From: Podarcis cretensis
Taxonomy: Eukaryota
Length of the DNA stretch: 64,000 bases
Direction: 5' to 3'
NCBI GenBank assembly: GCA_951804945.1
Contig: OX638149.1
Coordinates: 95,232,001-95,296,000, forward strand
This document shows, piece after piece, positions 15,277 to 64,000 of the stretch (position 1 is the first letter of the stretch; each line of letters opens with the position of its first letter). The position numbers were made by a program, and so were the translations under genes. The notes under the pieces were generated by a model. The model was not told the DNA's origin. It searched no databases and worked only from the letters and a program-made list of their open reading frames with translations.

Positions 15277-15411
<135 letters not shown>

Positions 15412-51454: not shown

Positions 51455-52889
51455 GGCTACACACAGACTGGTAAGAGAATAATAAAGGCTGAAGCACATC
51501 ACGCTTCAGCACTGCAGACATCAACAGTGCTTATCATTAGAGCTGAAGATATGTACCCCCCAAATCAATATATACCATATTTGCTGTTGCAAGCATTTAT
51601 CTGAGAGTAATTATGGTGTAAAATATCTTATCTCATTGTAAGGGCTAAGATTGACTTTTCCTTTTCCTTTCATTGCTTCAGTTCTATTATTTATGGAAAG
51701 TTTATATTTAATGTTATTTTTGTTTTAACCATAGGACATAACAAGGCAGAACAGAAATATAGACAGAACACTGGCTGCCACTTTGTATCCATGCAGATTT
51801 GTCTTAGCCTTCCTGGGTTGTTTTTTTTAAAAAAGACCGCTCTTCCTTTGCAGCCAAAAACCCTGTACATTTGTTCAAAACTTAAAGAGGAAGAGGTGAG
51901 GGTACACGAAGGGACTCTTGCCTCCTTATAGATGTACCACTGAACAATATAGTGGGGGAGATCCTCAGCATTACCTCTTCACCAGACAGATACAGTGTTT
52001 TAGGTGTTGCATAAATTACATTTATAAAATGTGTTTCTGAGTTTTGCCATTTCCAGCACTCCCTTGCTGTTTTCTCTCTTTCATCTAATTCTTAGATGGC
52101 AAACTCTTATACCAAGTGCCTGCTTTATTTAATTCTGTAATGCACCATTTACACTGATGGCACTCTTTAGCTAACAGTGATAATAATAATCATTGTTTTC
52201 CCTCCCATGGGGAGTAGTAGATGTCTCATGGGCTCCATCATTTAAAAACTAGTGATCCTGCAATAAAGTATCCTTTCCCAGGAAAGAGATGAGAGATTCT
52301 TGGAGGCAGATTTAACATATAGTAATCAGAATCAGATGGTAACAGCATCTAACCACAAAGGGAAGGCTAGTCCAGGCATTTGTTTAAGCAAGGATACCTC
52401 TGTTTTGTGCTTTGTTGTCCCACGTCTGAGCACTAGCCAGGATGTGAAACCTACTTGGTTTTAACAGTGGAAAAAAGCACTGAGCCCTCCCACTCTTTTG
52501 AATGAGAGCGGAACCACACGTGATATTGAAAACCCAGTGATAGTATCTTATACCTTAAGAAAGAAAAGTGGGGAAATGCATGCATATGAGGAGTTGCATA
52601 TCCAGTCAGGATCACACCACAGAGGAAGGGAGATTTCCTCCTGATTAAGTGACCCACAGATTTGCATCAGAGGAAACATACAAGTACCTGTATGAGTCCC
52701 ATTTGCTTTGCCCTACAGGTATGTGGCTGAATCCCATCCGAAGCAACAGATTGGAAGCATCCAGAGTGGAAACTATTAAACTGAACTATGTTTCTCATTA
52801 CAAGAGTCAATATTATATGAAATATCACTGTGCCTTGTTGTAGGTGACTCACTTTTCCTCTTTTCTGTTTCAATTTTCTCCCCTTGCAG

Positions 52890-53136
52890 CTGTCTGGAGG
52901 ATGTGAACTAACTGTGGTACTACAAGACTTTATAGCCAGCCATAGTAGTGAGCTGAGTATCCAGGTGGGGCAAACGGTGGAGTTACTGGAAAGGCCAAGT
53001 GAAAGGCCCGGCTGGTGTTTGGTACGGACAACAGAGCGCAGTCCTCCTCAGGAAGGGCTGGTCCCCAGCAGTGCTCTCTGTATCTCACATTCCCGGAGCA
53101 GTGTGGAGATGGACTGTTTCTTCCCTTCAGGAAAAG
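52890..53136 (+). CDS. KALRN: KALRN exon, SH3-1 LSGGCELTVVLQDFIASHSSELSIQVGQTVELLERPSERPGWCLVRTT...MDCFFPSGK(D)
   Basis: cttgcag|CTG...AAA G|gtaggc; 247 nt; phase 0-1; inside ORF 52884..53207. Confidence 0.95.
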
Positions 53137-54161
53137 GTAGGCAGAAATTGAACAGGGCTGATATTCCCTCCACTGTTAATTCACTAGCTAAAATGAAGGG
53201 AGGATAAAAGTACAGATATTCATAATTTGAGCTGCCAGCCTGCTGTGGAAGTGTGCTGTCTGCACTTTTGATGTGCATACTTATCTTTTCACCTGCATCA
53301 GCCAGGAGAGGGTGGGGGAAGGAAGGGACCTGTTTTTCCTGCTTGAGTGGAAACCCAATTACATACTGTTTAGCCAGACATTGTACCTGCTATAAAACAA
53401 TTCCTTCTGTATGAGTGCAGGACTCTGCATAATGCTGATTGGATGGCTTTTGAGTCATTCAGAAAATCACCTTCTCCCATTATATAGGGTTTTCAAGGGT
53501 GTTAAAAAAAACGGGGGGAATATTTAAAAATAAAGCACCAAACTTCTGTTTTTGAAACTTTTGATCAGGTGATCCAAAAAGCAATACCTAAAGCACCTGA
53601 GTTCTATCACATTATAGCAGTTAGCTGGGAAGGATAGTTTTGTTAAGCAATTCACCTTAGCATCATTTCTTCTAAGAAAGCCCTTGGGCTTTTGCCTGTG
53701 CTGGACAATCACAAATATAGTCTAGGTGGAGAATGCCTAGTTGGATTTTGTTTGCTGCTGTCATATATTGTTTGTTTTTATGTTTTTATGTTATATTGTT
53801 TTAAATGTTATAATTCACTTCATGTGTTCATGGACAGAAAAGTGGACTAAGAAAAACCCAATAAAGGTCAAGCCAGTAACACACTTAAACCTCAGGGAAG
53901 AGGGTAACAGAGACAAACAGCTATTATTCTGGAGCCGGGTGTCAACAGAGAAGCAAAGGCAGTGAAAAGAAGTAGTAAAAAGAACTGACATCCCTTAAGA
54001 TCTTAGTGAACAGGCAAACAGAAGAATGTAGGCAATTTTCACTGCCTGCATTTTTCTGAAGATATTGACTAAGTAATTAGAAATTTATCTAAAAACTAGA
54101 CAAAGGGACAGAAGAAGGCATTCAGCATTCTGAGATTTGTTCTATAAAAAGGTGGAATCTT

Positions 54162-54334: not shown

Positions 54335-55315
54335 ACTGCTTGTGATGTATGCACTTATTCCACTTTCACCTCTGGTAAACAGATTACACAGTTTTTTGTA
54401 TTGCTTAAAAATCTGCTTCACAGGTCCAATGGTGAGCTTGTGTGATTGGTTTGGTGCAGGGATACCAAACAAGGATGTCAAAAATGCCAAGGTGATCAAT
54501 TCTGGTGCTTTATTAAAAGAAGGTGTAAATTTACAACACAGCCTGCAGAGCCTTGCTGCCTTTATAGACCTGGGACAGACACAGAAACAGCAAGCATTCT
54601 AGATATGAAAGCTAGGAGCTGAATGGCACCTTAAACCTAGGTTATGGGTACAACAGTAGAATGTCTAGGACCACTTTTTTATAACAAGAATACAAAGCTG
54701 AAAATGAATGAACTGAAGCTAAAATATTACGTTCGTTTTTCACATGGTCTAGTCTTTCACCTGCCCACCCCCCTAATATTCTTAAGAGGGTCTTCAGAGA
54801 GTAGGTGGAAGTGGGGAGGCAGAAAAAGGTCCTCCTTTCCTTCCCCTCTGCAGTATTAATCTGAAATCTTAGGGGCAATACTGTTCTCAGAGCTCAGAAA
54901 CTGCTTGCGCTAATGAAATTCCCTGTCGCAAAATGCACCTAGCCCTAGAACAATGAGAGTTTCGGACACTGCCTGCCAATGAAGGCATAGGTGGCAAGCC
55001 TCCAAGTCTTAGATTGCTCCCCTGCCTAGGTAAATAACCAAGCATCCTAAAGCCTACAGAGAAGCATAGCATCAAAGCAAGCTGGTTAACATATATCAAA
55101 GCAAGCGCATAAACATAGGTGAGCTCATTCTTGCAGCAACTGCTAATTAGTCCCAGGGTTATCTTGACTACCAATATGGCATTTACAGTCTTTCTGGAAT
55201 GTTTTCACCATTTAGTTCTACACAGTGAAAGAAAAGGAAACTGCATCTACAAAAAGCAGAGCCTTTTTCAACTGTTAAAAGCATTTTTCAACTCCTAAAA
55301 ACTATTGCTGTGATC

Positions 55316-55672
55316 TGGCGCTGTGGGTTAAAGCCTCAGCGCCTAGGGTTTGCCGATCGAAAGGTCGGCGGTTCGAATCCCTGCGACGGGGTGCGCTCCC
55401 GCTGCTCGGTCCCAGCGCCTGCCAACCTAGCAGTTCGAAAGCACCTCCGGGTGCAAGTAGATAAATAGGGACCGCTTACCAGCGGGAAGGTAAACGGCGT
55501 TTCCGTGTGCGGCTCTGGCTCTGGCCAGAGCAGCGATGTCACGCTGGCCACGTGACCCGGAAGTGTCTCCGGACAGCGCTGGCCCCTGGCCTCTTAAGTG
55601 AGATGGGCGCACAACCCCAGAGTCTGTCAAGACTGGCCCGTACGGGCAGGGGTACCTTTACCTTTACCTTTA
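55316..55672 (+). mobile_element. Sauria SINE, CpG-rich (young) subfamily
   Basis: Intact B box GGTTCGAATCC; (ACCTTT)3 tail; many retained CpGs. Confidence 0.92.
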
Positions 55673-57321: not shown

Positions 57322-58448
57322 AATGCATGTAAATTGCAGGTTTACTGTATTCGAATTGGAAAGGAAGTGGCAGATGGCAGAGATGCCATGGATGGAAGGC
57401 AGGCTATCCATCCAGCCAAGTAAAACACACCTCCCTTTTTCACTCCTTTCATTTAAATAGTACTATATCTAGCATGAAATTGACATAGTACAAGGAAGTG
57501 GTTACATAAAATTGACATACCTATTTATGTTACCATTGCAATTATGAATTACGGTAACCTGCAGACTCTGGAGTAAAAAGAAAGAAAGAAAGTTATTTAA
57601 AATAAAATTTGTCATGTTGAAGGTGTTAGTAGCAGAACACTTTGTAGATTTTCTTAGCTTAAGTATCATGTGTTTACACTTTCTAAGAAGCTTGAGCCAA
57701 AGAATCTGGCTTTAAAGCTAATGAGCCAGCTCACTCATGGAGCAATATCCACTGTACAAGTGCTGAGCTGGAAACTCATTCTGCGAAAAACTGGCTTACA
57801 GTCACAAAAGCCCTTAGAAATGAGCCTGCAAAATGTTTAGTAGCCCAGAAAAATGTTTAGTAGCCAAATTGCCCTCATAGTCATTTGTGGCACAGCCTGA
57901 AAGATGCTAAGGTACTGTTGCAATTTCTAAAATTTCCTGTTTGGTCCTCCAAGTGTGATTCTTACCATAGATGAGTATGTGCATGACTAAGTTGTCTTTT
58001 AATGATAAGAAAGTGGAGGAGGGCAACCTATTGGCAGTGGGAACATCTCTCTTTTGTAGCTCCTGTGCTAAAATCCAAAGTTAAGGCTGGAGACTTTTGC
58101 GTGTCGAGGTCCCCAGGTCCACCCCAATAACTCACACATCACACAGAAATTTTTGTTTAAGATTTTTGGCATAATTTTGGCCACAACTTTATTAAAATAC
58201 AAATTTGTGAGTGGTTGCGTAGGCATTGGTTGCGACTATCTGCCCCCACCATGGGGGACAGACTGACATTCCGCACGATACGAAAGTCAGAATGGGGGAA
58301 TACACTTGGGGGTTACGCGGAGCAGGGAACCTGCCCTCACCCCAAATGCAACCAGGAGCTCATTGCTATGGCCCGAGCCCCCTTGACAGAGTGGACAAGC
58401 AATAGTTAGCTCCCAATTCCTTTAACGGAATCCCTTGCAGCAGCAGCA

Positions 58449-59418
58449 TTAGAGGGGCAGGCACAGCCAATCCATGCCCCTCAACCAACCAAACCATAAA
58501 CCAATGCCTAACCGCCACCGAGCACTCAAGCTCGCCGCCAACACAACAGATTTTAACCATGTGTCATTTCCCAACGGGGAAAGATGCACACCATCGTCCC
58601 TGAAAAGGACGGCCTCCTTGAAGGTGATATTGGGGTGCGCAATCACGGAACCACCATGAGCAATGACTGTTTTCATTGCCACCTTATTAACGCGCTTTCT
58701 GGCTCCTTCAGTGGCAGCTGGACAGTGACTGCCACGCCAGGTGCGCCTCTGCAGCAACTGGGACCAAAAAACTTTCACACCAGGCAAAAACTCTGCCAAT
58801 TCAACTAAGTCCCTTTGAATTGTAAAGCGTAAAGAACAACAGTCTGTGGCGGGCAGATCGTTTTCCCCCAACTGGAGCACGATAGCTGAAGGGGATAGAG
58901 TTACGTCCTGCAAAAGCAAACCCCTAGACTCTCTGCCCCGGATGACCTCCAATACCACCTCACCTACCCTCAGGGCACCAAAAAAGGCCAAAGAAAAGGC
59001 AGCTGAAAAAAGCCGCGCTTCATATCTGGACCAGCAGACGCTCCTCAACTTTGAGCGCATGCTGGTAAGCAAATCAAAAGTTATAGGCTTTCTTACCAAA
59101 GGGGGTCGAGTTCCAAGCCTCCCCCAACCTTCCAGAGCCCTGCGCACAAAAAATTTGGCGCAAGGATCCTTATTAAAGAAGGCTTTACAGAAGAAGGAGA
59201 TGGCTGCTGCTTGCATCCTGAGCGTCCTGGCCGCTCGACCCAATTGGAAAAGGTGCGCCAAATACTGCAGCACCTGTGAAGTAGAAGGAGATGACTCAAT
59301 CTCCATAGACAAAGACTGACGACAAAATTTTTAAAAAGTCAGTCCAAGCTCGATTATATGAGCGCAGAGTGGAAGGTGAAATGGACGTGGCTACTCCCTG
59401 TAAGACTAATTGCTGCCA
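58449..59418 (-). pseudogene. Tyrosine recombinase N-terminal half fused in frame to an SGNH hydrolase C-terminal half; +1 frameshift near the N-terminus
   Basis: SISPSTLRSYNRAWTDFLK, frameshift in an A5 run at 59328-59332, then RKPIT...FFGALRVGE (YR box I), directly followed by IVLQLGENDL (SGNH block III GxND) and DDGVHLS (block V DxxH). Confidence 0.85.
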
Positions 59419-61004
59419 AAGTTCCAGAGATGATCCGGGAAATTTTCTGGCAGCAGATTCACCTCTGGAGCAAGGGACCTGAACCGCTCCATCTGAAAAC
59501 GGGACAGAGCATCAGCGATTTCATTAGAAACGCCAGGGATGAATCGAGCTGAAAACACAATGTTAAAGTACAGGCAATGCAAAACAAAAGCCCTGAGAAG
59601 GGCCGATACCCTGGCTGAACGGGACGACTCTTTTGCCAACACGTTCACAACGGCCTGGTTATCGGGCCAGAAACAGACTCGATGGTCCTTGAATTCCTTG
59701 ACCCACAGGTGCACTGCCACTGCAATGGGAAAGAACTCAAGAAAAGTTAAGTCCCGCGTAATAGGCTCCCCTCGCCACGATGGCGGCCAGGGCAATGCGC
59801 ACCAACGACCTTTCCAGTATAGCCCAAAACCCAGAGAGCCTGCTGCATCAGAATGCACTTGGAAGTCATTATGGAGGTTCAAAGTGTCCTGCCATAATGA
59901 CACCCCATTGAATTCATTCAAGAATTCAAGCCATAACTGCAAATCCGCCTTTACAGCAGGTGACAGCCGCACCCGATGATGAGGGGCACGCAAGCCGGCC
60001 GTAAGCCTGGCCAGGCGCGCACAGAATGGGCGACCGGGAGCCACCACCCTGCATGCAAAATTAAGGTGGCCTAATAAGGACTGCAACTGACGCAATGTCA
60101 CCTTACGTAATGGGAGCAACTCCTCTATTATCCTTTGCAAATTAACCAATTTGTCCTCAGGTAAGCGAGATGTAGATGCAACTGTATCCAATTGGATACC
60201 TAAATAAGTCAATTGAGTGGAAGGTCCCTCGGTTTTATCCGATGCCAATGGGACACCCAACTCTTCCGTAAGAGATGCGAAAGCCTGAAGCAGGGCCAGG
60301 CAGTCACCCGTGTCCCTCGCCGAGGCCAGTAAAAAGTCATCCAAAAAATGGGTCACCCCATCCAGGCCGGTTTTAAAACGCAAGGCCCAGTCGAGAAAAG
60401 TACTAAAGCACTCGAAAGCTGCGCATTAAATTGAGCAGCCCATGGGCATGGCTTTGTCAAAATAAAATGCCCCTTCAAACTGGAACCCTAAAAGCCAGAA
60501 ATCCTGAGGATTAATTGGCAACAAACGAAAAGCAGACTCAATGTCGCATTTCGCCAGCAGGGCACCTGTCCCAAATTTTCTGATCATCTTGATCGCATGA
60601 TCAAGAGTAGCGTATTTTACCGAACAAAGCTCCGGGGGGATAGCATCATTTACTGACGAACCCCTGGGGTGTGATAAGTTATGAATGAGGCGAAACTCCC
60701 CGGGGGCTTTCTTCGGAACAATTCCCAAGGGGGAGAGATGCAGATTAGCGAAAGGAAGAGCCAGGAAGGGGCCTGCCATACGACGTAAGGCAATTTCTTT
60801 CTCAATCTTTTTACGTGCCACTTCATGCCTTTTCCTAACTGACTGCTGATTAACCGGATTCCGTGCTACGGGGACCGTAGCTACCGGAATCCTAAAACCA
60901 GAAGAAAAGCCCTCCTGTAAATAAGCAGCTGCCTCACGGTTAGGGTAAAACTGCAACCAATGAACCAATTCTGGAAGCCGTACCGGCGTATAAGCTAAAA
61001 CCAT
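59406..61004 (-). pseudogene. Reverse transcriptase/RNase H ORF with one in-frame stop
   Basis: SPLGIVPKK, FRLIHNLS, AKCDIESAFR, MPMG and FLDD RT motifs; RNase H SDAAG, LEFFPI, DNQAVV, NEIADALSR. ORFs 60426..61136 and 59406..60383 share a frame, separated only by TAA at 60426-60428. Confidence 0.9.
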
Positions 61005-61015
61005 ATCCGCCTCAC

Positions 61016-61318
61016 TTAGAAGCGCCAGCTGCTGCTTGAGGGGGGGGGCGCTTTTGCAGCTTGTGACCCCCCCTTTCCCCCACGAAAGGGCCGGCGGCCG
61101 CCAAAGCAAGTGGAGCCCGGGTGGTTGCCACCACATTTTTCACAGACATGAGGAAACCTACATGGTTGTCGCTGGCAAGAGCCTTTACTGTAATCCCAGC
61201 AATACAAGCGCTTTTTAAAACCTCCTGTTTTTGGCTTTTGAGGTTCAGGGGTCTTCTTTTCAAACTGAGGGGCCACATAAGTGCACGGGCGAAAAGAGGA
61301 AGCCCTAGCCTCGTGCAA
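61016..61318 (-). CDS. Gag/ORF1 C-terminal fragment with zinc fingers
   Basis: C-X7-C-X4-C-X3-H (CWDYSKGSCQRQPCRFPH) followed by C-X2-C-X3-H-X4-C (CEKCGGNHPGSTC); N-terminal part missing. Confidence 0.8.
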   Translation of the reverse strand: MHEARASSFRPCTYVAPQFEKKTPEPQKPKTGGFKKRLYCWDYSKGSCQRQPCRFPHVCEKCGGNHPGSTCFGGRRPFRGGKGGSQAAKAPPPSSSSWRF

Positions 61319-64000
61319 GGGGTTTTACTATTTCTGGCTGTCAATCAATAAATGGCAACATTAACTTCTTCCCAACAACAAGGGAAGCCCCAATCGCATC
61401 AGTGGCCAACGATCAATTAGCCCGCCCCCCAACTTTGGAGTGTTCTGGCAGCCCCCACCGCAACACGTGCTCTCCATGAAGGAGAACACGCTTTGTAAAA
61501 GAAAGTTGTGTGTCCCACCATCTTTATGTAAGATACTGTATGTCCAGCAGCTATGATGGGCCATAGGATCAGGCTGTTAGCCTCACCAAAGGTGATCTGC
61601 CTTTCCTCTTGCCATACTTTATATGAAAGCATGTAACAGTTGAATGTGAGAAATTTGATGGATCTACTGTGCTAAAATGCCAGGACAGATTCCTCTTGGA
61701 AAGGCTCAACAACCAACGTTTTCAGATCTTCTCTGTGTTGTAGCACCTGGCTTAATTTATTTATCTGAATCAAATAACTTAGTATAACCTATTTATCTAA
61801 AAATTATGAGATTTATATTCTTGACCTGCAGCTATGTTCGGACTGGACATGTCATGCTCATGATGTCTCTTTGTTTCTGGCCCTTAATCATAGGTGGTTG
61901 TGTTTCTCCTAATTAAGTGAATTAAATTAACTCAGTTATCTTCAGTTCCCTCTGGCCCAACAACTGGAGAGCAGGTTGCTTTGAATTTGTCATTAGCTTC
62001 AGTGGAATGTATTTTGCCACTTGTGCTTCTGATGACATTAGTCTTCCCCTCACTGCCTAAAGCAATATTATGAACAGAATATTAGGGAAATGAAAAGTGT
62101 ATTAAAATGGTTGTATTGTGATAGGGCTAGATTTCTAGAGTAGACGGTTTGGAAGCTTTGTTGTCTATAATGTATATTTTAGATTGCAGTCACGTTGTTT
62201 CTGAGCACACAAGCTTATCTAGACTTATATTTGTTTACCAGAACTGGCAAACCAAATGTATCATTAAAGTCACTTGACTTTAATCGGTAGTAAGTTATCC
62301 CTGGAGAAGCACCACTGGCAATTCATCAGGCTCTTTATTTCCTCTGTAAATTCTGTAATAAAACAGGAAAGACTATTTTAAGAAACAGAATTGGTACCAT
62401 TCTATTTTAAACTTAGAGTTTATTTAGAGAGAGACAGAAGGTGTCCTTTTATTTTCTGAAGAAGGAAGGGATAAAAAATTATCCACAGCTTAACTAGAAT
62501 TCAGGTACCATCTAAGCCATGATGAGGTTTCATTTGATAATTTCATAATGTATTTTAGCAATAGTCTTTAAATGACAAAGACTACAGCAGAAAGGAAACA
62601 ACTGGTTTTATCCTGCCCAAAGGGCATCTCATGTCTTTCTTAAGTATAACTGTGAGCTGTCAACTGGATAAAAGTCATTTGCAATGTTAGCTTGTGGGCT
62701 AGGAGCTTTATGCCTTTTGTATTTTAAAAAATATTTGCTAACAATGTGGCTAGGCAAAGCACAGTACCAATTAGACCTACCCACCCATCATCTGAATTTA
62801 CCCAGGGCACATGCAGTAAGGGTAGGGAAAGAGGTGAGTGGGAATGGGTGAGTGACTGAGACAGAGAGAAGTCATGCTAGATGTTGGACAATACTTGTTG
62901 TAGTTTAATTATGTAAATAAGCAGTTCTAACCAAAAGATTTCAGGTGGAACAGTGGAACATCAGGAAACCTATGGCCCTCTGGATGTTGCTGGACTATAA
63001 CTCCCATTTTCACTGGCCATGCTGGTTGAGACTAGAGGAAGCTGAAATCCAACAACATCTGGAAAGCCACAGGTTCCTTGCCCCTGACATAGTGTACAGT
63101 GTCCAGAAAATCCTGTTTGCACTTCATAGCTCAGAGCAAGCCCTGACAGCAAGAGCCAGGGTTTGTTTTTGTTTGTCTAAATTTGTATCTTTGCATATAA
63201 ATTAGCATATGCAATTTTTATGCAGTTTAATAATATGGGGCTGTAATCTACCAATGTACCTGGTAAAAAGTGCTATATATAGTGCATCAGAAAGTCCAGG
63301 CCTGATGGGCTACTTGGTTATTATTTGGGTCCTTAGTCAGTCACATTAATATCAAGAGTTAAAAGTCTAAAACTCTGTAATACTGATATTATTAATATGT
63401 GAGTGTCCACTTCTCTGTAGATTACAGTGGCAGCCACAAAGCTTAAGCTAGCAGTTACCATTTTCCATAAGAAGAAACGTATGTTCTTTTTGATATGGAA
63501 TGCAGGTGTACAAGATTCTCAAACTTCTGATCCAAACCTACATTGGTGCTCTAAAAAACTGGTGCTTGTAGAGTATTTAGATAGAAGTAGTGTGACACAG
63601 GCTCTCCCGGTCCTTTCATGGTTATATAGACAAGGGAGAGGAGAGTAACTTGTTGAAAATTTGCTCTTAATCATCCATTATTCTTTGCAGTATGTTTAAT
63701 GTTGTGTCAGACAATGCTGGATTTTTCAATCCTCATTTACAGTCAACCCGTATCCCAACACTGTAGTCATAATTACCCGAAATCCCACTCTTACCTCTTG
63801 ATACTTGTGTCATCACACAAGACTCAAAAATAACGCAGTGGTTTTCCCTGCCCTGAAGTACTACAGCAGCATGTCTGTTTCAAAATTAAAACAGCAGGTT
63901 TGGTTAGATTGCTCTTCCAGTAACTAGTTTATTTTCCAGAAAATGTGGATCTGAAGTTTAATATAGCATGAACCTGCCTGCTTTAGGGTTTGCTTCTTCC

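Follow-up and report, generated by a model that had tools for sequence, protein, structure and literature searches.

A 608-nt deletion joining tyrosine recombinase and SGNH hydrolase frames in a decayed Ngaro copy of Podarcis cretensis, a probable one-off lesion

A single dead copy of a Ngaro retrotransposon in the lizard Podarcis cretensis carries a 608-nt deletion that joins the first half of its tyrosine recombinase (YR) frame to the second half of its SGNH hydrolase frame, and the join is very probably a one-off product of ordinary decay. The copy lies in a stretch of 64,000 nt (the window, to which all positions refer) on a 141.6-Mb contig. The first-pass annotation had ascribed the fused frame to a deletion between two look-alike coding stretches that produced a catalytically dead chimera, and had proposed that, should many copies share the junction, a non-autonomous subfamily with a new fusion protein was amplifying. 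The former is borne out by comparison with a sister copy, by the overlap at the breakpoints and by the similarity of the deletion arms; the latter fails, the junction being single in DNA, pattern and peptide searches.

Exons of a Kalirin/Trio-type host gene surround the copy (Table 1). Apart from the SH3-coding exon, RhoGEF exons were recognized on the plus strand at window position 15298 and about 45 kb past the window end. The element stands between the SH3 exon and the RhoGEF exon beyond the window, and the host exons are all on the plus strand. Because of this order of the host domains and the opposite strand of the element, we infer an intronic, antisense placement in a Kalirin-like gene. 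The neighbouring DNA also contains a SINE-like repeat of about 360 nt at 55315-55670, putatively of the Sauria SINE type, similar copies of which are inserted in the reverse transcriptase (RT) region of the sister element, and, in the flank of the element, a 20-nt tandem duplication, 90% identical, at 57825-57864.

The element ends and the layout were determined by mapping to 31 loci. The full A1...B1-A2-X-B2 layout of split direct repeats is found in loci L038, L040, L041, L043 and L045; the window copy retains A1 and B1 alone and lacks the B1/A2 junction of full-length elements. Its gag-like, RT/RNase H and YR frames stand in Ngaro order with weak CCCH finger and RVT_1 matches, and all three are broken. 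The SGNH frame placed after the YR, an arrangement of the amphibian type, is separate in the sister copy and in most of the 45 long loci (Lipase_GDSL_2, E 5e-5, for L038), which agrees with the earlier statement that Ngaro-group elements can carry a hydrolase ORF of their own. Judged by its sequence, the window copy is a remnant of the Ngaro family and not an intact member. A sister copy, L015, is 98% identical to it (55 substitutions in 3184 aligned nt, or 1.7%). In comparison with the sister about 2.5 kb of the 5′ region is gone, or about 2.1 kb when a 365-nt insert present only in the sister is excluded; these 2.1 kb of native element include most of gag together with its conserved donor-like site. 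Because of a 1-nt insertion in the homopolymer 59328-59332, the natural YR reading breaks off at 71 codons and does not reach the fusion ORF. An AA dinucleotide is present at both ends of the element (61494-61496 and 58097-58098), as well as at the ends of solo copies, and corresponds to the core of the B/A junction; no target duplication longer than AA was seen at the element ends, which fits a 2-nt crossover core.

Table 1 Features of the window copy and its host gene (positions in the window)
Feature	Position	Strand	Remarks
Host SH3-coding exon, Kalirin/Trio-type gene	52887..53186	+	PDB 1u3o_A, E 5.9e-40; Trio 7sj4_A, E 2.5e-31
Internally deleted Ngaro (DIRS order) copy, 3.4 kb	58097..61496	-	layout A1-[incomplete interior]-B1; the A2-X-B2 tail is missing
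Repeat A1, 215 of ~223 nt	61282..61496	-	ends at the 5′ deletion junction (2-nt overlap)
gag-like ORF, 3′ remnant with CCCH zinc finger	61016..61283	-	zf-CCCH_10, E 0.003; 1-nt insertion near 61048
RT-RNase H frame	59406..61047	-	RVT_1, E 0.018; stop at 60426-60428
Natural YR frame start	59298..59511	-	acceptor-like site 59493-59494, putative use suggested by sequence and gene model P0006
Fusion ORF, first ATG to stop	58449..59306	-	285 aa
YR N-half: SAM-like core-binding domain minus first ~27 residues, plus box I Arg	58895..59306	-	Lys, His-x-x-Arg and Tyr lost
YR/SGNH junction, 7-nt overlap CCCCTTC	58888..58894	-	Ser-Pro-Ser codons; left by the 608-nt deletion
SGNH C-half	58543..58887	-	block III (GEND) and block V (DGVH) kept
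Second junction, 34-nt deletion, 5-nt overlap	58538..58542	-	SGNH C-terminal residues and stop removed
Repeat B1, 419 nt	58097..58515	-	common to short A-X-B solo copies

The open frame extends from stop to stop over 58449-59330 on the minus strand (293 codons). The 287 codons reported at first describe a real open frame, but that count begins at a TTG (59312), whereas the first ATG, at 59306, gives the length shown in Table 1. The motifs named previously were all located in this one frame on the minus strand: FFGALRVGE (YR box I) at 58959-58985, DVTLSPSAIVL at 58875-58907, QLGEND (SGNH block III) at 58857-58874 and DDGVHLS (SGNH block V) at 58578-58598. A scan of the ORF for SKTD, HxxRxGxA, GHS/GDS and Tyr-region motifs found none of them, in accordance with the claimed absence of the YR catalytic Lys, His-x-x-Arg and Tyr and of the block I Ser of the hydrolase.

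The fusion ORF aligns with residues 75-214 of the 329 residues of an intact YR, to which the YR N-half of the window copy is 71% identical; Lys 218, HSFR 293 and Tyr 327 fall outside, and of the YR catalytic residues (Arg, Lys, His-x-x-Arg, Tyr) the box I Arg alone remains. The SAM-like domain occupies YR residues 42-113 in L038, the fusion ORF starts near residue 69, and the first helix of the domain lies outside it. In the hydrolase part the Asn of block III and the Asp-x-x-His of block V are retained, and the block I Ser and the block II Gly, both inside the 608 nt deleted, are missing. The description of the C-half as SGNH hydrolase thus stands for blocks III and V but not for the last ~24 residues, which are non-SGNH: following the second, 34-nt deletion the frame reads on into the B repeat, and the non-native tail runs to 58449. 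The profile search suggested for the ORF gave a weak Lipase_GDSL_2 match in Pfam (E 0.011, below the cut-off) and neither an integrase nor a SAM match. The chimera folded alone reached a pLDDT of 39, and an intact SGNH control folded alone was equally poor (38); an alignment of the half-domains intended to guide the fold misplaced most SGNH rows and was dropped.

The origin of the fused frame is apparent from the sister copy, in which the YR C-half retains Lys, HSFRIG and Tyr and the SGNH frame, containing GHS, stands apart. Between these two frames 608 nt are missing from the window copy, and the SGNH acceptor-like site has gone with them, along with the block I Ser and block II. Comparison with the sister located the anticipated microhomology at the breakpoints, a 7-nt overlap that lies slightly 5′ of the join first placed at about 58872-58890. 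The overlap of the deletion arms measures 6 nt in the sister itself and 7 nt in a variant of L016 and of other species' contigs, and the arms encode Pro-Ser-Glu-Val-Val-Leu in the YR and Pro-Ser-Ala-Ile-Val-Leu in the SGNH frame. Among exact repeats shared by the YR C-half and the SGNH frame of the sister copy, 13 of the 26 of at least 7 nt, and 52 of the 109 of at least 6 nt, would join the two in frame; the in-frame outcome of the deletion does not go beyond chance and is no rarity. Microhomology-mediated repair and replication slippage are both mechanisms of deletion, and either may have removed the 608 nt with the 7-nt overlap.

The junction is unique to the window copy in the 1.5-Gb, chromosome-scale assembly (51 contigs), in which the search scored only the best candidates (150 of 797 with the peptide, 40 of 229 with the spacer). 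A 201-nt DNA probe gave 14 matches from 14 candidates, and the one that spans the join is the window itself. A 28-nt pattern across the junction, searched at up to 3 mismatches, matched once, in the window (control 0), and a 71-residue junction peptide was matched end to end in one of the 150 best-scored places of 797 candidates. The undeleted spacer, i.e. the stretch missing in the window copy, is common, with at least 41 matches from the best 40 of 229 candidates. One DNA match (query 3-106) and three protein matches (3-50) that ran past the join were rejected, since in each of these four loci the YR frame is distinct from the SGNH frame. The two other deletion junctions of the copy are single as well, the 5′ junction at up to 3 mismatches and that of the 34-nt deletion at up to 2. 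A diagnostic junction common to several dispersed copies was thus not seen in the assembly; the same-junction count proposed by the first-pass annotation stops at one copy, and this uniqueness points to simple decay rather than to a subfamily.

The contigs assembled from reads bear on the order of events. In the runs of organisms A, B and C contigs from the flank reach ~27 nt into the B end of the element, and in the runs of B and C they reach ~26 nt into the A end; because flank contigs enter the element ends there, the insertion would predate the split of A, B and C. The X1 contigs end at 58894 and 58924 and start at 58895 and 58865, which are the break points required by a 60-nt junction contig, and the depth surpluses at the breaks, 15.8 and 8.1, compare with a flank depth of ~12. 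The X5, X6 and X7 contigs cross the SGNH breakpoint unbroken and in the undeleted form. We read this as one locus-worth of the junction in organism A; in B, C and D it was not seen, although absence there is no proof, as contigs can drop rare variants, and the view covers the element ends and the SGNH breakpoint rather than the interval between the ends at the site. Since the related species hold the element ends here yet show the undeleted form alone, the deletion likely followed the insertion and took place in one lineage.

The deletion could instead have arisen by template switching during reverse transcription, before insertion, so that the copy was dead on arrival. Short overlaps also mark template switches of reverse transcriptases, and three deletions in one copy could stem from one faulty cDNA; in B and C, however, both element ends are held at the site and the contigs are without the junction, although a later collapse or loss there would still fit. 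We consider such an origin very unlikely, and the lesion is a one-off whether the deletion preceded or followed the insertion.

An assembly error that collapsed an intact copy is very unlikely. It could be invoked because a contig bridging the YR/SGNH junction was listed in none of the four runs, which tells against a full confirmation and makes the read support indirect, but the assembly is of chromosome scale, the contig breaks in X1 exactly flank the junction and do not occur in X5, X6 or X7, and the X1 contigs carry the frameshift and the RT stop of the window copy. A precise 7-nt overlap is, moreover, typical of real deletions.

What the assembly shows directly is how large the deletion is, where it breaks, what overlap it left and that it occurs once, as well as the remaining lesions. 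The succession of events that we would propose is that the element inserted first, that the deletion followed in one lineage, and that the resulting frame, whose internal Met behind 30 upstream ATGs is the only start left, is likely functionless.

Candidate splice signals were followed across the family. An AG after a pyrimidine tract stands at one fixed position in 27 of 33 SGNH starts (40 rows less 7 chance rows), three of the remainder having an AG one codon in and three having none. Of 23 rows (1 chance row set aside), 22 have CAG just ahead of the YR entry, a position that RNase H coding also constrains, and a donor-like G/GTA site in gag is present in all 14 rows found. The joins of gag to YR and of gag to SGNH in the predicted NCBI gene models P0006 and P0022 fall on these candidate splice sites. 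In the window copy the natural routes into both halves appear to be cut, because the gag donor-like and the SGNH acceptor-like sites are deleted and the YR frame, whose reading from its natural entry stops after 71 codons, is shifted before the ORF. The Met that begins the fusion ORF is internal and subfamily-specific, none of 13 standard YR frames of 329/330 codons having Met there, and translation from this Met would begin ~27 residues into the SAM-like domain. Probably no protein is made from the fused frame. The substitutions in the ORF that are assignable to the window copy number five (3 non-synonymous, 2 synonymous; p 0.35 versus neutral), too small a sample to speak for or against selection.

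In three other NCBI gene models, P0001, P0007 and P0011, the YR N-half breaks off directly behind Ser-Lys-Thr-Asp-Gln and continues into an entire SGNH exon; in the YR frames of 26 loci the candidate donor after this motif reads GT 12 times and GC a further 9 times. Such joins may be annotation artefacts or, alternatively, a natural spliced YR-half/SGNH isoform of intact elements.

Internally deleted P elements offer a precedent for a function of the fused frame. In KP and D50 an internal deletion leaves a frame with the DNA-binding part and without catalysis, and deleted P elements need an intact DNA-binding domain to act as repressors, according to the passages concerned in PMC12393704. The window copy resembles them in its internal deletion and in a DNA-binding part retained in an open frame devoid of catalysis. 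By analogy, the locus could be transcribed and the 285-aa chimera serve as a dead, site-binding repressor of active Ngaro elements, or have been co-opted by the host. The frame is indeed open, its 285 codons containing no internal stop; the greater part of the core-binding domain survives together with box I, as does most of repeat A1, the presumed promoter, and some other Ngaro subfamilies of the genome have repeats that are 99-100% identical and look active. We nevertheless regard this as highly improbable. A complete DNA-binding domain behind a natural start was not found, as the ORF lacks a SAM match and the first SAM-like helix and its natural entry is frameshifted; translation would depend on a non-conserved internal Met behind the upstream ATGs with the donor-like site deleted; the C-terminal tail is non-native; splicing of the host gene cannot reach an ORF antisense to it; and the junction was not seen in three related species. 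KP, as described in the cited passages, has the whole DNA-binding domain and its start and is expressed and abundant, whereas the window copy has a clipped domain, an internal start and a single representative. The corresponding scenario, in which a transcript from the A1 promoter would give a chimera able to repress the active subfamilies by binding to Ngaro ends or to partners, a lineage-specific repressor of KP type made by one deletion, has only a faint chance of being correct.

The subfamily to which the window copy belongs looks spent. Its ten other non-solo copies are each broken at places of their own, and its A/internal junction gave 6 pattern matches in the assembly, compared with 249 for the A/X junction of the short solo copies. 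Among the solo copies the mean difference is 2.8% (37 full ones of 46), and they seem to be of about the same age as the window copy; variants shared among these 37 define no clear sub-lineages. Three of the 50 pattern matches to the B/A junction were mapped at the DNA level and found to be ~70% alike and to belong to other subfamilies. An amplifying non-autonomous subfamily marked by the YR/SGNH junction has practically no probability left: the frame is open, both element ends are present and deleted derivatives have spread elsewhere (P-element derivatives, PMC12393704; ORF1-less Ngaro type 2b, PMC8547959; as far as the cited passages go), but three independent searches found one copy, which refutes such a subfamily for this assembly, the window copy has no B1/A2 junction, and none of the 50 matches is the exact B/A junction of its subfamily.

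Side observations were made on the same population. The ~249 A-X-B solos of 815 nt greatly outnumber the copies that retain internal sequence, of which there are about a dozen, and no full-length copy was found. As B1 and B2 (419 nt, ~400 nt apart) should recombine more readily than A1 and A2 (~220 nt, >5 kb apart), the excess of solos suggests that A-X-B units may have inserted on their own. Two 3′ fragments of the subfamily, of 709 and 614 nt (L032:418-1754 and L033:358-1428), are flanked by direct duplications of host DNA of 314 and 230 nt, 96-97% identical, which could reflect integration at one end and subsequent repair; the flanks of a third truncated copy (L018) are not duplicated in this way. 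In another subfamily, L073 and L074 agree in the places at which each has a frameshifted YR and a pair of SGNH-start segments, and amplification of this rearranged form is a possibility.

In this Ngaro family decay routinely yields fused frames. Among loci picked on purpose for unusually long frames, L080 (3182-4786, minus strand, 535 codons) and L081 (4015-5583, plus strand, 523 codons) have YR-SGNH frames with a frameshift near the His-x-x-Arg box, lesions unrelated to the 608-nt deletion, and L079 (4038-5522, minus strand, 495 codons) has a frame that joins the RNase H region to the YR. Each of these lengths occurs once among the 150 best-scored rows of the junction peptide search. Of 42 database homologues searched (157-503 aa), the closest named ones coming from lacertid lizards, 7 join a YR part to the SGNH frame; all are uncharacterised NCBI gene models and were rejected as instances of the same fusion, as they contain the whole SGNH from its start and none has the window junction. 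Literature searches on Ngaro with SGNH, hydrolase or fusion brought up no paper on a YR/SGNH fusion.

The systems described to date place the window copy as a relic. The hydrolase-bearing Ngaro elements DIRS-53_XT and DIRS-54_XT of Xenopus have the order gag-like, RT/RH, YR, SGNH (10.1101/2021.08.05.455354 = PMC9210276), and the same source mentions degenerate copies without repeats or without YR, hydrolase or RT domains. The lizard copy shares this order of frames, and its intact relatives have the split direct repeats; it differs from the Xenopus elements, in so far as the source describes them, in that its YR and SGNH frames have become one through the accident of a deletion. Ngaro type 2b of Cafeteria burkhardae shows ~2-kb 5′ deletions over ORF1 and isolated AB repeats (PMC8547959), resembling the ~2-kb 5′ deletion of the window copy and the solo AB repeats of its subfamily, but those variants recur in several copies, and an SGNH frame or a fusion of frames is unmentioned in the cited passages. 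The window copy is a remnant of the Xenopus kind that no longer works like any of the known systems.

The finding itself is of small significance, a further transposon copy in decay. Were the chimera expressed and repressing active Ngaro elements, tyrosine-recombinase retrotransposons would have a repressor made from one of their own copies, as is known for P elements. For the scanning of genomes the copy is a caution: single lesions readily give long fused frames in this family, because the YR and SGNH frames adjoin and share many short repeats, and three different long ones were encountered among the copies examined, so that a seamless fusion is in itself no sign of selection.
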